From Escherichia phage 132, in the sequence record MZ417521: a stretch of DNA of 64,000 nucleotides, one strand, 5' to 3'. Position numbers and translations under genes: made by a program. The notes beneath the pieces were generated by a model. That model saw nothing but the letters and a program-made list of their open reading frames with translations. It had not been told where the DNA came from and searched no databases. Of this stretch, positions 57,304 to 63,730 are shown piece by piece (the stretch's first letter is position 1; each line of letters begins with the position of its first letter).

Positions 57304-57489
57304 TTAAAGCGTATTCACATAAGCTATTAATTCATTTTCTTTCTTATCAAACCGATCAGCAAATTCTTCCTGCTGTTCGGGAGATAACGGGCCGTATTCA
57401 TCATAAAAGGTGTTTGCTTCTGTATGCTCATCTAGAAGTTCATGGATAAGCTCAAATAATTTATCTTTTTGTTCTTTACTCAGACTCAT
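57304..57489 (-). CDS. small acidic hypothetical protein, 61 aa
   Basis: ATG ORF. Confidence 0.45.
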   Translation of the reverse strand: MSLSKEQKDKLFELIHELLDEHTEANTFYDEYGPLSPEQQEEFADRFDKKENELIAYVNTL

Positions 57490-57659
57490 ATATTAATTTC
57501 CAGGAGTTTTAAAATAATTCGCTTTTGCTTAAATATTTCCATAGTTAAATGACCAGTATCTTTTTGACCGATTCCAATGGCAAAACCTTTATTAACAGCG
57601 AGTTCAATTAAATTATCAAGCTCACGTAACACTTCGTATTGTAACTCAAAACTATTCAT
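57486..57659 (-). CDS. small hypothetical protein, 57 aa; below the ORF-track cutoff
   Basis: ATG at 57657-57659; stop forms an ATGA overlap with the next start; hand-translated. Confidence 0.3.
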   Translation of the reverse strand: MNSFELQYEVLRELDNLIELAVNKGFAIGIGQKDTGHLTMEIFKQKRIILKLLEINI

Positions 57660-57862
57660 TTTGGTTTACCTTCTTTAACGAAATCTGGATAAGGATAAAA
57701 TCCCGAATAAAATCCTTCACCTTTATGATTGATACATCCTTTATTAGAACAATAGCACCAATAATCGAAATCACAAGCCATTTCATCGTTGCATAAAGCA
57801 AAAACAACCGGCCACTTACACTTTTCACAATAGGCATTTTTAAGAATACTAGTTTGGCTCAT
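57656..57862 (-). CDS. small cysteine-rich protein, about 68 aa
   Basis: ATG at 57860-57862; 10 Cys including CEKCKW and CYCSNKGC. Confidence 0.4.
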   Translation of the reverse strand: MSQTSILKNAYCEKCKWPVVFALCNDEMACDFDYWCYCSNKGCINHKGEGFYSGFYPYPDFVKEGKPK

Positions 57863-58071
57863 AACCATGTCACCTTCAAGCAATATTCTTCTACATGCTG
57901 TTTACGACCTTTCTTATCAATAAAGGTATATTCAACGAATGTTCCAATGTAGTCTTTATCTACATCATGTAGGCTATTAATTGGGCATTTAGTACGGCAA
58001 ATGCGTTCCCATTGACGAATAATTTCTGCTTTGTTTTTAGGATCAAACGGATGCGGGTAATGCACTTTCAT
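57859..58071 (-). CDS. small hypothetical protein, 70 aa
   Basis: ATG ORF. Confidence 0.45.
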   Translation of the reverse strand: MKVHYPHPFDPKNKAEIIRQWERICRTKCPINSLHDVDKDYIGTFVEYTFIDKKGRKQHVEEYCLKVTWL

Positions 58072-58522
58072 AATCCACCACTATTAAATCAATATCAGGA
58101 GTAAACATGTCGATTAATTTAGAAACCTTATCCCAATCACCGCCAGCAATACCACAACCTATGCGTGGAATGTAAATTACTGGTTTAAACAAAAGGGTTT
58201 CTGCCTGTAGATTTAATTCTATCATGCAGTTTACTAAAGCACCATAATCAAGATTAGGACCTGGTTCGTATTGCGTATACAGGTTATAGCATATACCAAA
58301 ACCATTAGGTTTATGTTTAAAAACAATAGACATATCGCCTAATTTATCACGCGAACCATATTCAGTTGTGGTCTTATCTATTTCTAAAATTTTGGGATAG
58401 GCTCTTGCTAATTGACCCGCTACACCTGAACCCATAGTATGAAAACAGTTACACCCATGCGCAATAATATTACCTTGAAGAAATAGGGCGACAATATCGC
58501 CCTTGATATATTTTACAATCAT
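58043..58522 (-). CDS. macro-domain protein (ADP-ribose binding/processing fold), 159 aa
   Basis: macro-domain-like motifs: N-terminal GDIV...AHGCNC...GSGVAGQ and C-terminal IPRIGCGIAGGDW. Confidence 0.55.
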   Translation of the reverse strand: MIVKYIKGDIVALFLQGNIIAHGCNCFHTMGSGVAGQLARAYPKILEIDKTTTEYGSRDKLGDMSIVFKHKPNGFGICYNLYTQYEPGPNLDYGALVNCMIELNLQAETLLFKPVIYIPRIGCGIAGGDWDKVSKLIDMFTPDIDLIVVDYESALPASV

Positions 58523-58866
58523 CTAGTACTCAATCCTCGATTATAAGAATCTACCAAACGGTCAACCATTGAATGACAAGCGGCTTTATCTTTCTCCTCC
58601 GCAACTGAACATTCTAAGGTATTCCACTTTTTAGCATATCGTTTTAATAATGTATCGTTTTTGTATCTGCTTGATTTATCTCTTTCTCCGTCTTTATATG
58701 CATATATTAATTTCTGTGCAAATTCAGCTTGGCATGCTTTATTTTTCCCACAATAATCTGCCGCAGTGCGGTTTACATATTCTCTAATTTCAGTATATGA
58801 TGTATCTGCTGACGCAGAAGCAGAAAATGAAATTAATCCTATACATAAAACCAAAATTTTAGTCAT
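58519..58866 (-). CDS. secreted cysteine-containing protein, 115 aa (vs position)
   Basis: cleavable signal peptide (MTKILVLCIGLISFSASASA); four Cys in mature part. Confidence 0.5.
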   Translation of the reverse strand: MTKILVLCIGLISFSASASADTSYTEIREYVNRTAADYCGKNKACQAEFAQKLIYAYKDGERDKSSRYKNDTLLKRYAKKWNTLECSVAEEKDKAACHSMVDRLVDSYNRGLSTR

Positions 58867-59404
58867 TTACTATTTCCAAAAGTTTATTATTTTTAAGGTA
58901 ATTAGCCTTTTCTAGGACTTCAGAAGCATATTTAGAACCTGCTTTAACATTCCATCCCGAATTATAAGAGGATATTGCTTTTCTTATATCGCCCTTATGT
59001 ATATTTAACCAATAAGAAAGTTCAATGTACGCCCAGGAAGCTGAATTGGACCGTTTATTCAACATTCTTTTTATTTCAGCATCAGTCATATTATAACCAA
59101 GTTCCTTAACTCTTGCTCGCATAGTAGGCAAATAATTTTGGAACATTCCATAAGCGTGATGCTTTGGTTTAGATTTTAAATTAACTCCGCCAGAGCTTTC
59201 TTGCCATAAAATGGCTGCCATTATATGACCCAATCCACTCTTGTGGATATTTTTGTGTGTTTTATATTTTCCATCCTTAGAAAATTGTTCCCCGAATTGA
59301 TACGCGTAACGCATGTTATCGAGTTGGACATTACTGAAAGTATGCTCGGAGCTATGTGCCATCATTGAAATGGCCAATAGACCAGCGAGTAGTGCTTTTC
59401 TCAT
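58859..59404 (-). CDS. secreted soluble lytic transglycosylase-like protein, 181 aa
   Basis: signal peptide; SLT-family motifs (ILWQESSGG, GMFQ, YNSG). Confidence 0.65.
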   Translation of the reverse strand: MRKALLAGLLAISMMAHSSEHTFSNVQLDNMRYAYQFGEQFSKDGKYKTHKNIHKSGLGHIMAAILWQESSGGVNLKSKPKHHAYGMFQNYLPTMRARVKELGYNMTDAEIKRMLNKRSNSASWAYIELSYWLNIHKGDIRKAISSYNSGWNVKAGSKYASEVLEKANYLKNNKLLEIVND

Positions 59405-59411
59405 GCTTACC

Positions 59412-59873
59412 TCATTGAGTTTTAATTACTGCTTTAGAAGCCTTTCCTGGTAAACGACGACTGTTGATAATTGCCATCCTGCATTGAAGTGACGGGTTTT
59501 TGAACTTCTCATTAGGCTTACAAACTGTAAATCCAAGCCAAAGATTTCCATCTGTGATTTCTAAACGCCCAGGACGATATTCAACACCATCAATAAAATC
59601 CTCGTCAATGTCAGGACGCGGAGGCATACTCAGGAATTCATTAACTTCTAAAACATGGTCTTTTATTTTATGGAATAATTCAAAAACATATGTCTCATCA
59701 ATCTCCCGTTGAATTGCGCGATCAAGAAGATGCTGAGAATATTTTAGATGAAACGATGAGACCCCTGCTGCTTTTGATGCCTCACGAATCTCATTGTTAA
59801 TTTGACGAAACTCCGACTCAAAGTGACGACGAAGCTTATTTCGACGGATAAAAACTTCTGTATTGATAGTCAT
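59412..59873 (-). CDS. regB: endoribonuclease RegB, 153 aa
   Basis: T4 RegB length and N-terminus; ATG preceded by AGGAG and an early promoter. Confidence 0.8.
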   Translation of the reverse strand: MTINTEVFIRRNKLRRHFESEFRQINNEIREASKAAGVSSFHLKYSQHLLDRAIQREIDETYVFELFHKIKDHVLEVNEFLSMPPRPDIDEDFIDGVEYRPGRLEITDGNLWLGFTVCKPNEKFKNPSLQCRMAIINSRRLPGKASKAVIKTQ

Positions 59874-59900
59874 GTTATTCTCCTCTTAACTGATAGAAAA

Positions 59901-59930
59901 ATTATACCACAGTCAAGAGGAAAAGTAAAC
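59901..59930 (-). promoter_or_regulatory. T4-type early promoter upstream of regB
   Basis: gtaaac 59925-59930, attata 59901-59906 on plus strand. Confidence 0.55.
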
Positions 59931-59932
59931 AG

Positions 59933-60211
59933 TTATTCTTTAAATCTAATCAATTTATTCATAGACTTTGAAACTTCTGCACGAACCTCATGCAGATTTT
60001 TGAGCTGTTCAAGACGCTGCGTATAGTAAGCAATTTCATCTTCTTCGAGACAGTCCTGTGAATCTTCTTTAAGATAACGTGCATAGTCCTGAAAAGCGTT
60101 ACGAACTACTTCCTGGAAATCATCAAGACTTTGAATTTTCTTAGGAGCAGCAGATACACGACGAGGGGCAGTATAATACTCATAACCAAACCCTGCGCTT
60201 AATTGAGCCAT
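59933..60211 (-). CDS. small hypothetical protein, about 92 aa
   Basis: track start is GTG; ATG at 60209-60211 preceded by GAGGA. Confidence 0.4.
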
Positions 60212-60477
60212 TAGTATTTTTCCTCTGGTTGGAACACTGCACGACAAGCCCACATACTGGCTTCTTTGAGTTTCGCTTTAGCAATAGTTAACTGATCGAG
60301 GCTTTCAGCATAATTCTTCGCGAATTCACAGTCTTCGCAATTATCTAGTGCTTCCCAAAATTCATCATATAAAGCGTCAAAGATAAGTCCTAAACGAACT
60401 TCAGCGTCTTTAATAGCATTTACTTTACCGATTTTTTCGTCGGTATGTGGCTTATAACCTTTAATATCTTCAATCAT
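60211..60477 (-). CDS. small acidic protein, about 88 aa, at the relative position of T4 vs.4
   Basis: ATG at 60475-60477 with GAGGAAG 6 nt upstream; sequence not recognised. Confidence 0.4.
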
Positions 60478-60691
60478 ATTTGACTTCCTCACCAGTGCAT
60501 AAATCATATTCAACTAAACGAATAGGTTCATGAATGCCATATCCTTGAACAGAAATTTCTGTAGTAGGATAAATTCCATTAATATCACCCATGTTCCATG
60601 CTTCGTTAAATTGCTGTTCGCCTGAATTACTAAACCATTCGGCGAAAGCATTTAGCACATCTTCAGAACCTTCAATAATTATCTTTGCCAT
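60470..60691 (-). CDS. small acidic hypothetical protein, 73 aa
   Basis: ATG ORF. Confidence 0.45.
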   Translation of the reverse strand: MAKIIIEGSEDVLNAFAEWFSNSGEQQFNEAWNMGDINGIYPTTEISVQGYGIHEPIRLVEYDLCTGEEVKYD

Positions 60692-61053
60692 TACAAACTC
60701 TCGGTAAAGGTACGAGCGATAACGTCGCGCTGCTGTTCCGGAGTCAGAGAGTTAAAGCGAACTGCATAACCGGATACACGGATGGTCAGCTGCGGATATT
60801 TTTCCGGATGCTTAACTGCATCTTCCAGAGTTTCACGACGCAGAACGTTAACGTTCAGGTGTTGACCACCTTCAATTTTAACTGTAGGCTGTGGCTCAAT
60901 TTCAATTTCACGGGCATGCAAACCATAGAAAATTTCTGGGTCTACAAAAGAGTCCTCTTTAAAGGTTTTAGAAACGATAATTCGTGCTTGAATACCATCT
61001 TCAAAATAAATAGTACCTTTATGTGTGCCTTCAAGAATTTGATATGCTTTCAT
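60691..61053 (-). CDS. autonomous glycyl radical cofactor (GrcA/YfiD-like), 120 aa
   Basis: C-terminal glycyl radical motif [25 protein letters not shown], as at the C-terminus of pyruvate formate-lyase and E. coli GrcA. Confidence 0.7.
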
Positions 61054-61060
61054 ATAAACC

Positions 61061-61441
61061 TCAATTAGAAAATAAATTTATCCAAGATTGTTCTTTAATT
61101 AAAAACGGCTCAGAATCATATGCCATTAAACTTTGGGTAATTAATCCTTTAAAAGGTCCATCAATAAATTCCATGGTAAAATATGGAATTTTATTCATTA
61201 ATCTTGCATTAGGAGCAGTGCACAAAACTCTGCATCCTTTGAATACGCCTTTTTGTAATTTGTATTGCTTAGGATAAAATTCGCTCAAGACGTTGTTATT
61301 TGCCAAAATTTCAAAATGATTCACCAATTTATTTTTAATAGTTTTTGGCGAAAAATAAAGATATTCGAAAAGTTGCGTATCTGTCATCATTGCATCCCAA
61401 TTACGAAAAACTGTGGACGAGTAATACCACCAATGCAACAT
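61061..61441 (-). CDS. hypothetical protein, up to 126 aa (start uncertain)
   Basis: ATG ORF overlapping the upstream gene by 55 nt; alternative ATG at 61388-61390. Confidence 0.4.
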
Positions 61442-61926
61442 TTACTATTGCAGCAGTAATGTACAGTGTCAATATGGACACTATAAATTTTATCCATATC
61501 AGGAGCTTTAACAGGCTCATCAATTATATACAAAATTCGCGAAAGCAATAAACCCCTGAACTTGCTTCCTTTATTGCCAATAAAACTACGGACAGAATCA
61601 GTAAATAAGCGGAATCGAATATCATCGCTAGAATAACGAGAAAATTCTTTTTTAATGTGGCCTGCAGAAATTTTAGCATAAGCTGAAGTATTAGAAAGAA
61701 CAATAACTGTTCCACCGTCATACAGCCAATTAACAGCAAAATTAGTTACTGCGGTCGATTTACCTGATTGTCTGCCACCGTCTAAACGAAGTGTACAATA
61801 CTGCTTGAGTACGTCTTCAAATGGTGGGGCATAACCGTTCTTACAAATTTCTTCTACTCTAGCATCAGAATGGTGTGTAAAAGCATTCATCAGGGATAGA
61901 TAAGGACCAGTTAAAAATGTTCTCAT
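61387..61926 (-). CDS. P-loop NTPase-like protein, about 179 aa
   Basis: Walker A-like GGRQSGKST and Walker B-like ILYIIDEP; track start is GTG, ATG at 61924-61926 chosen. Confidence 0.4.
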   Translation of the reverse strand: MRTFLTGPYLSLMNAFTHHSDARVEEICKNGYAPPFEDVLKQYCTLRLDGGRQSGKSTAVTNFAVNWLYDGGTVIVLSNTSAYAKISAGHIKKEFSRYSSDDIRFRLFTDSVRSFIGNKGSKFRGLLLSRILYIIDEPVKAPDMDKIYSVHIDTVHYCCNSKCCIGGITRPQFFVIGMQ

Positions 61927-62006
61927 TTTATTCTCTCTAAGTTTGGGCCATTCCATGGCGCATGAATTGTCCATTTCTGTATTTACCACTCCAAGTAATT
62001 ATGAAT

Positions 62007-62036
62007 ATACTATCACAATTCTAGGAGAAAGTAAAC
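62007..62036 (-). promoter_or_regulatory. possible early promoter (weak -10 TAGTAT)
   Basis: gtaaac 62031-62036; -10 candidate 62007-62012. Confidence 0.3.
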
Positions 62037-62038
62037 TG

Positions 62039-62341
62039 TTATTTACCTTTAATTACTTTAGCTGCTTCGATAGCCGCTTGCTGAAGGTCATCCATAGACA
62101 TACCGAATTTAGAAGCAAAGTTATCAATTTTCTTTTCGACAGCATTCAAAGGCTTGGCCTGTTTACCTTCATTAGCGCCAGGAAGAGCGAGAATACGCTC
62201 TTTGTCAATATAAAGGCTTACAAGTTTCTTACGGTCTTTATCGGACAAATCGTGAAATGAATGAGCCTTTTTATTTATAGCGGCTTCTAATTTACCTGCA
62301 CTCACTCGCGCTTCAGTAATAAATTCTTGATATGTTTTCAT
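62039..62341 (-). CDS. ipII: internal protein II with capsid-targeting sequence, 100 aa
   Basis: N-terminus MKTYQEFITEA matches the T4 internal-protein capsid-targeting sequence; T4 IPII length. Confidence 0.65.
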   Translation of the reverse strand: MKTYQEFITEARVSAGKLEAAINKKAHSFHDLSDKDRKKLVSLYIDKERILALPGANEGKQAKPLNAVEKKIDNFASKFGMSMDDLQQAAIEAAKVIKGK

Positions 62342-62379: not shown

Positions 62380-62958
62380 TTAATTACCACGGGCTGCATT
62401 AGCAACGGCGTAAGCGTACTGAACATTAGCGTCTTTAAACGTACCTTTAGAGGTGTCTATTTCTGCCTTAAAGCCGCCTTTAGCCATAACATCGGCAAAT
62501 TCTTTACGGAAAGCCATTGCATCAAGACCTTTCCATGATGATTTATGCTTGGCAAATTCAAGACCAGCGTAGTTGACAGCTTTAGCCAATTTATTATCAA
62601 TGACCCATTTACCAGCTTTAGGCACAAACACCGGGCCTTTCTGTTTAGAGAATAGTTTTAAATTCCAGCGACGAAGGTCACCGTCGGCTTTAACAAAAGC
62701 TGCGTCTAAGTTACTAGCAACAACATCTTCAATATGAGCAAATTTAAGCCCATCAACTTCAATATTTAGATCGTTACGCCAGCGTAGTCCTTCCCAAGCG
62801 AAGGCTTTAAAATCAGAAGCTTTTGTGGCTAGATATCGTTCAAGTGGAGCAGTTTTAGGATCAAAGCCGTTTCCGCCACGATAATTCCACTCGTCCTTAT
62901 TAATGCCTTGGACTTTTCCTGCAAAGGCCTCGGCGATAAATTCTTTATATGTTTTCAT
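62380..62958 (-). CDS. ipIII: internal protein III with capsid-targeting sequence, 192 aa
   Basis: N-terminus MKTYKEFIAEA; size close to T4 IPIII. Confidence 0.65.
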   Translation of the reverse strand: MKTYKEFIAEAFAGKVQGINKDEWNYRGGNGFDPKTAPLERYLATKASDFKAFAWEGLRWRNDLNIEVDGLKFAHIEDVVASNLDAAFVKADGDLRRWNLKLFSKQKGPVFVPKAGKWVIDNKLAKAVNYAGLEFAKHKSSWKGLDAMAFRKEFADVMAKGGFKAEIDTSKGTFKDANVQYAYAVANAARGN

Positions 62959-63022
62959 TTTTTGTTTCCTTGTTTGTTTTGATAGAGTAATTATACCATA
63001 TTAATACTTAAGCGTAAACAAT

Positions 63023-63283
63023 TTAAGCTTTACCGCCAGAAATAATTCCGAAGTTGTTAAAATCGTATTCAATATCGTCAACATCTACTTTAGGACTTGC
63101 TACGACATAAGCAATTTCACTACGTTTTGCATAGGTGTTGATTTCTTTACCATCGCCACCTAAGAAAGAATACCCATTACGTTTTAATGAGCCAAAGTCT
63201 TCCGCATCACCAATGAAAGCTTTAACTTTAAATTTTGGACCTTTGGCATCTGCTTCAATGATAAATTCTTGGTACATTTTCAT
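63023..63283 (-). CDS. additional internal-protein-like protein with capsid-targeting sequence, 86 aa
   Basis: N-terminus MKMYQEFIIEA; third member of the tandem IP cluster. Confidence 0.55.
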   Translation of the reverse strand: MKMYQEFIIEADAKGPKFKVKAFIGDAEDFGSLKRNGYSFLGGDGKEINTYAKRSEIAYVVASPKVDVDDIEYDFNNFGIISGGKA

Positions 63284-63289
63284 TTTTCC

Positions 63290-63703
63290 TTAGTAAATTG
63301 ATTTACCATAGTATTTGTACCAAGTCGGGCGCTGAGCAATTTTTTCATCTAAGCGAGCTTGACTTATCGCAATGGACGCTTCGGACGGGACATAATTATT
63401 ACGAAATTCGACAGGGATGTCGGAAATATCCTGGACAGTCGTGTCCTTGATTTTGAAACCACGTTTCAAGCATTCAGCGATTAGCTCGATTTGACGTAAA
63501 CGTAAAAATTCGAGTTTGTCGTAAAAGAATGTTACGTGACCTGTGCCTAAGATAAATGTTGGAGAGATTTTAAAATCCTTTACACGTTTACCGTTTTGAA
63601 CATGTTTACGGACTGCACCAAATACGCGTGGTAATTCACGATACTCAGCCATAAGATGTTGGTCGGTCAGTTCAGAAACAAGTGTTAAATTGATACGAGT
63701 CAT
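63290..63703 (-). CDS. denV: endonuclease V (pyrimidine dimer DNA glycosylase), 137 aa
   Basis: start set to ATG 63701-63703 (GGAGG 5 nt upstream); product matches recalled T4 EndoV ([34 protein letters not shown]...). Confidence 0.93.
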
Positions 63704-63730
63704 AATTTCCTCCAAGTAGTTGATGAATGT

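Follow-up and report, generated by a model that had tools for sequence, protein, structure and literature searches.

Gene content and organization of the locus

All positions given here are those of the window, the 64,000-nt stretch of Escherichia phage 132 DNA (MZ417521) that was analyzed. The coding sequence assigned to vs.4/acb2 occupies 60211..60477 (minus strand) and consists of 88 codons and a TAA stop; its product is predicted to be a cyclic-dinucleotide sponge. As computed from the translation, this 88-aa protein has a mass of 10.2 kDa and a pI of 4.64, with 19 acidic residues (D+E) against 12 basic ones (K+R). A Shine-Dalgarno sequence, GAGGAAG, was read from the sequence at 60484..60490 (-), within the 3′ end of vs.5. 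Its own 3′ end is 6 nt ahead of the vs.4 ATG (60477), and alignment showed the same letters in T4 and in 232Ecol030PP. A mechanical list of open reading frames also contained a 100-aa version of the vs.4 frame that begins at a TTG at 60513. This longer version was rejected, since the Shine-Dalgarno sequence stands at the ATG at 60477 and T4 Vs.4 has been both annotated and crystallized from the ATG.

Both neighboring genes overlap vs.4. Upstream, vs.5 (60470..60691, minus strand, 73 aa) matches phrog_1986 from end to end (E = 7.2e-44); it terminates in ATGATTGA, so that the end of vs.5 and the beginning of vs.4 share 8 nt. Downstream, vs.3 (59933..60211, minus strand, 92 aa from the ATG at 60211) matches phrog_2037 (E = 1.7e-40). 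Here the vs.4 stop and the vs.3 start share TAATG at 60211, an overlap of 1 nt, and both the length of vs.3 and its junction with vs.4 are the same as those of T4 vs.3 (T4 62800..63078). The 8-nt overlap suggests translational coupling between vs.5 and vs.4, and the 8-nt and 1-nt overlaps together suggest that vs.4 is translated within a coupled polycistronic unit. Beyond vs.3 lies the gene for the endoribonuclease RegB (59412..59873, minus strand), which is collinear with T4 regB and carries the RegB annotation in matching phage records, while vs.6 (60691..61053) follows vs.5 on the other side. The order regB-vs.3-vs.4-vs.5-vs.6-vs.7-vs.8, all on one strand, is that of the T4 record. More broadly, 57858..61987 of the window is collinear with T4 60712..64861, from tk.3 through vs.8, at 92.4% DNA identity. 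When a 1.7-kb segment around vs.4 was used as a query, 802 phage records were matched, the top ones being Tequatrovirus genomes at about 98%. A first-pass annotation of this DNA had described an ORF of roughly 88 aa at 60211-60477, encoding a small acidic protein with a strong ribosome-binding site and a tight overlap with its neighbor, and had arrived at vs.4 by counting genes upward from regB. The arrangement found here agrees with that description throughout, and the overlap is present on both sides of the gene.

Transcription signals were sought by pattern. A scan of 59300..62100 gave 11 promoter-like sites against 9.3 expected, which is background level, as well as 3 terminator-like sites where 1.8 were expected; a terminator-like hairpin at 60246..60263 falls on the non-coding strand. 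A regular-expression search upstream of vs.4 for promoter patterns of the T4 middle (MotA box) and late (TATAAATA) classes gave two matches: a MotA-like site at about 61549, within vs.8, and a late-type site at 62279, within ipII. Both are to be read as patterns only. The site in vs.8 (about 61549..61518, minus strand) reads ATTGCTTTCGCGAATTTTGTATATAAT and is similar to a T4 middle promoter in that a MotA-box-like TGCTT precedes TATAAT, which follows 12 nt on. As it lies upstream of vs.7 through vs.3, this putative element could provide middle transcription of the block that contains vs.4. Expression of T4 vs.4 has been reported to be predominantly middle/late.

The vs.4 gene differs from T4 vs.4 at 9 nucleotides, 7 of which are synonymous changes, and tblastn found homologues, mostly unnamed, in 1,232 phage records; for both reasons it is taken to be a real gene rather than a chance ORF. 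Apart from the shuffle-level outcome of the promoter scan, nothing but the small size of the frame would suit a chance ORF without expression. Against it stand the mostly synonymous divergence from T4, the Shine-Dalgarno sequence, the start and stop overlaps with both neighbors and the breadth of homologues, together with a T4 ortholog whose knockout gives a phenotype and whose structure was solved by crystallography (Jenson et al., PMC10097602). The probability that 60211..60477 is such an ORF is therefore negligible.

Variation from T4 in the surrounding region

Several differences from T4 were observed around this conserved block. The first concerns vs.5 itself, which is intact in the window, whereas the T4 reference has a 1-nt deletion (TTTCG-CGAG in T4 versus TTTCGCCGAG in the window). 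The deletion shifts the frame, so that the annotated T4 Vs.5 has 58 aa and a 36-nt gap precedes vs.4. T4 thus either has a frameshifted allele, or its record contains a sequencing error. At the other side of the region, the tk.1-tk.2 interval between tk and tk.3 (57313..57858) matches its T4 counterpart (60345..60712) over only 181 nt, at 69%, and its small ORFs are unlike those of T4, making it another variable patch of this early-gene region.

Upstream of vs.8, in the segment 61987..63739, the gene order is also unlike that of T4. The window has vs.8, ipII, ipIII, an 86-aa ORF and denV, while T4 has vs.8, denV, ipII and ipIII. The ipII gene (62039..62341) encodes a protein that is 94% identical to T4 IPII at the amino acid level, with 86 residues aligned, and the ipIII product (62380..62958) is 91% identical to T4 IPIII; denV (63290..63715), by comparison, has only about 78% nucleotide identity to its T4 counterpart. 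Because the gene order seen in the window from vs.8 to denV recurs in phage mogra (Mosigvirus), AV114 and others, a comparison of these sequences suggests that the segment has undergone mosaic exchange. The 86-aa ORF (63023..63283, minus strand) has no counterpart in the 58-68 kb segment of T4; in the annotation of phage mogra it is called hypothetical. Its N-terminus, MKMYQEFIIEA, closely resembles MKTYQEFIAEA, the N-terminus of both T4 IPII and T4 IPIII, which serves these proteins as a capsid-targeting sequence. The 86-aa ORF may thus encode an additional internal head protein.

Relationship to T4 Vs.4/Acb2

The first-pass annotation had put forward the correspondence with T4 vs.4, reported as Acb2, from position, and had proposed direct alignment with the T4 protein as a check. 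When the product was searched with phmmer against all PDB chain sequences, 86 of its 88 residues proved identical to the T4 Vs.4 chain (PDB 7UQ2), with the match extending over the full length (1-88, E = 2.8e-56). The next matches in the PDB were chains of PaMx33 Acb2 (p26; 8IXZ, 8H2J), which aligned along the whole protein at E ~0.26; as judged from this alignment, it is the distant family relationship that would be expected. The protein also matches the Pfam family PF24729 (Acb2/Tad1 hairpin, Acb2_Tad1_hairpin) across all profile positions, 1-58 of 58, with 66.5 bits against a cut-off of 27. In PHROGs it is assigned to phrog_717 (E = 1.7e-31), the family that served to define and collect 198 Vs.4 homologues (Jenson et al., PMC10097602). 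In the close relative 232Ecol030PP, the same gene is annotated as "anti-CBASS protein 2". The positional assignment is thus upheld by sequence similarity, by family membership and by the T4 gene order, and the lack of similarity to Acb2 that the first-pass annotation had listed as counting against it is clearly not what was seen.

Near-identity, family membership, residue conservation and synteny all lead to the same assignment, and 60211..60477 is very likely the vs.4/acb2 gene of a T4-like (Tequatrovirus) phage, with a predicted cGAMP sponge as its product. The function as a sponge is attributed to the window protein through its 98% identity to the characterized T4 Vs.4.

Substitutions and functional residues

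The only amino acid changes relative to T4 Vs.4 are E13D and T68A. The residues that form the cGAMP pocket, Y8, H11, K23, S74, R79 and F82, are all as in T4. In the T4 protein, Y8 and F82 stack on the purines of cGAMP, and Y8, H11, K23 and R79 contribute hydrogen bonds and salt bridges, while the substitution S74N interferes with the ligand (Jenson et al., PMC10097602). Likewise unchanged are L29, F33, A66, A73 and A77, which make up the hexamer interface, as well as T12, a helix cap, and L60, where the change L60F came out of the genetic screen of Jenson et al. (PMC10097602). Position 13 adjoins H11 and T12, and T68A is on the helix that also bears A66 of the interface. The contact, interface and escape residues published in PMC10097602 and in the main text of PMC12657218 include neither position, and E13 and T68 are likewise absent from the Panoptes escape mutations given in the main text of the latter.

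Natural alleles were compared among 13 full-length 88-aa members of the 90%-identity cluster to which the window protein belongs. D13 was found in 6 of the 13 (the window allele and 5 others), residue 68 was T, A or M, and no ligand-contact residue was changed in any of them. As both positions vary within the cluster and none of the listed members alters a ligand contact, E13D and T68A look like ordinary polymorphism when judged against these sequences. The same cluster also lists two 73-aa Vs.5 proteins (P0007, P0015), which looks like a clustering oddity of the protein collection and not like biology.

Ligand specificity

Members of the Acb2 family differ in the ligands that they bind. In PaMx33 Acb2, cyclic trinucleotides occupy a second pocket, for which R67 and T74 are required; T4-Acb2 accepts cyclic dinucleotides, whereas cA3 and cAAG are not bound (Cao et al., PMC10312549). 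The T4 residues corresponding to PaMx33 R67 and T74 are D61 and T68, and a D61R mutant of the T4 protein was still without cA3 or cAAG binding (PMC10312549). In the phmmer alignment, D61 of the window protein falls on PaMx33 R67 and A68 on T74, and the pair that characterizes the trinucleotide pocket of the PaMx33/JBD67 type is thus absent from the window allele. Because both equivalents are missing, the window allele is expected to capture dinucleotides only, in the manner of T4 Acb2.

Could the two substitutions nevertheless give the protein a ligand spectrum unlike that of T4 Acb2? T68A, E13D or both might, for example, weaken binding of the Panoptes decoy 2′,3′-c-di-AMP while 3′,3′-cGAMP binding is kept, or change the affinity for some dinucleotides. 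Position 68 aligns with PaMx33 T74, which is essential for cA3 binding (PMC10312549), and the residues next to position 13 are a cGAMP contact and a helix cap (PMC10097602). The exact allele was found by tblastn in no record of the phage collection, where the best match was 98.9%, and decoy systems have been proposed to select for sponge specificity (PMC12393519). A spectrum altered in this way would be a natural case of a sponge evolving away from decoy-based detection. However, the trinucleotide pocket is not used by T4 Acb2 (PMC10312549), the dinucleotide pocket is identical to that of T4, and both positions lie outside the contact, interface and escape residues reported in PMC10097602 and in the main text of PMC12657218. 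In addition, natural alleles often carry E13D and have T, A or M at position 68, a pattern resembling neutral polymorphism. An altered spectrum is accordingly regarded as very unlikely, and a T4-like preference for cyclic dinucleotides is preferred.

A further reading would make the window protein an Acb2 homologue that sequesters the Thoeris signal 3′cADPR and not CBASS signals. It has a precedent in Acb2-family members that block type I Thoeris and not CBASS (PMC12393519). Those homologues, however, use another pocket and extra structural elements, with L6/V7 on a beta-strand (PMC12393519), whereas the window protein retains the Y8/F82 stacking pair and its closest characterized relative, T4 Vs.4, inhibits CBASS. 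A Thoeris-specific sponge is therefore highly improbable, and capture of CBASS dinucleotides is the activity considered below.

Predicted mechanism and implications

Work on the T4 protein provides the framework for a proposed mechanism. The T4 Vs.4 hexamer binds three molecules of cGAMP and inhibits the effector CapV in vitro (PMC10097602); its Kd for cGAMP has been given as about 30 nM (Jenson et al., PMC10097602) and about 84 nM (Cao et al., PMC10312549). Knockout of T4 vs.4 led to a roughly 50-fold loss of titre on CBASS with mutant Cap2 (PMC10097602). Given its near-identity to T4 Vs.4, the 10-kDa helical-hairpin product of phage 132 would likewise assemble as a hexamer, and this would take up three 3′,3′-cGAMP or related cyclic dinucleotides, each in a pocket formed where two protomers meet. 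Y8 and F82 would provide the stacking surfaces for the bases, which H11, K23 and R79 would hold in place. Capture of the signal made by the host CD-NTase would keep CBASS effectors such as CapV inactive and allow the phage cycle to be completed.

Two host countermeasures to this activity have been described. In one, Cap2-mediated conjugation of cGAS boosts cGAMP synthesis (PMC10097602). The other is Panoptes, in which a toxic effector is released once Acb2 captures the decoy 2′,3′-c-di-AMP; to trigger this system, T4 Acb2 was both necessary and sufficient (PMC12657218). The same binding activity that would counter CBASS would also be expected to expose phage 132 to Panoptes, a sensor of decoy-nucleotide loss.

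The vs.4/acb2 gene described here is already known and represents no new biology. NCBI already lists the exact 88-aa sequence for Escherichia phage 132 under QWY90483.1, with the title "hypothetical protein Phage132_118"; the cluster to which it belongs has 373 members. The practical value of the analysis lies in annotation, as this hypothetical protein can be given the name anti-CBASS protein 2 (Acb2/Vs.4) with confidence. For users of the phage, in therapy or host-range studies for instance, it is predicted to resist CBASS of the cGAMP type and other dinucleotide types, unless these are boosted by Cap2 conjugation, and to be sensitive to decoy defenses of the Panoptes type.

Comparison with known sponges and anti-CBASS proteins

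T4 Vs.4/Acb2 (NP_049728; PDB 7UQ2) is the closest known system. Like the window protein it has 88 aa, and its gene is flanked by vs.3 and vs.5 with the TAATG junction to vs.3. The window protein differs in carrying E13D and T68A, and the T4 record differs in the vs.5 deletion and the gap of 36 nt ahead of vs.4, where the window has an intact vs.5 and the 8-nt overlap.

PaMx33 Acb2, from a Pseudomonas phage (p26; PDB 8H2J, 8IXZ and related), shares the fold of the Acb2/Tad1 hairpin family. The residues of its dinucleotide pocket are conserved in the window protein, in which Y8 and K23 align with PaMx33 Y11 and K26. In contrast, overall similarity is marginal, as reflected in the E value of about 0.26; the identity between T4 Acb2 and PaMx33 Acb2 is about 24% (PMC10312549). 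PaMx33 Acb2 also has the cA3/cAAG pocket (R67, T74), where the window protein has D61 and A68.

The Thoeris anti-defense protein Tad1 has a hairpin domain under the same Pfam family, PF24729, and is also a sponge that sequesters a signal. The window protein is an orthodox Acb2 of the T4 type, whereas Tad1 is known mainly as a binder of gcADPR Thoeris signals (PMC10680739). Acb1 (T4 57B) resembles Acb2 in neutralizing the cyclic-nucleotide signals of CBASS, and T4 has both Acb1 and Acb2 (PMC10312549). Acb1, however, is an enzyme that degrades these signals; it has no sequence relation to Acb2, and its gene lies elsewhere in the genome.
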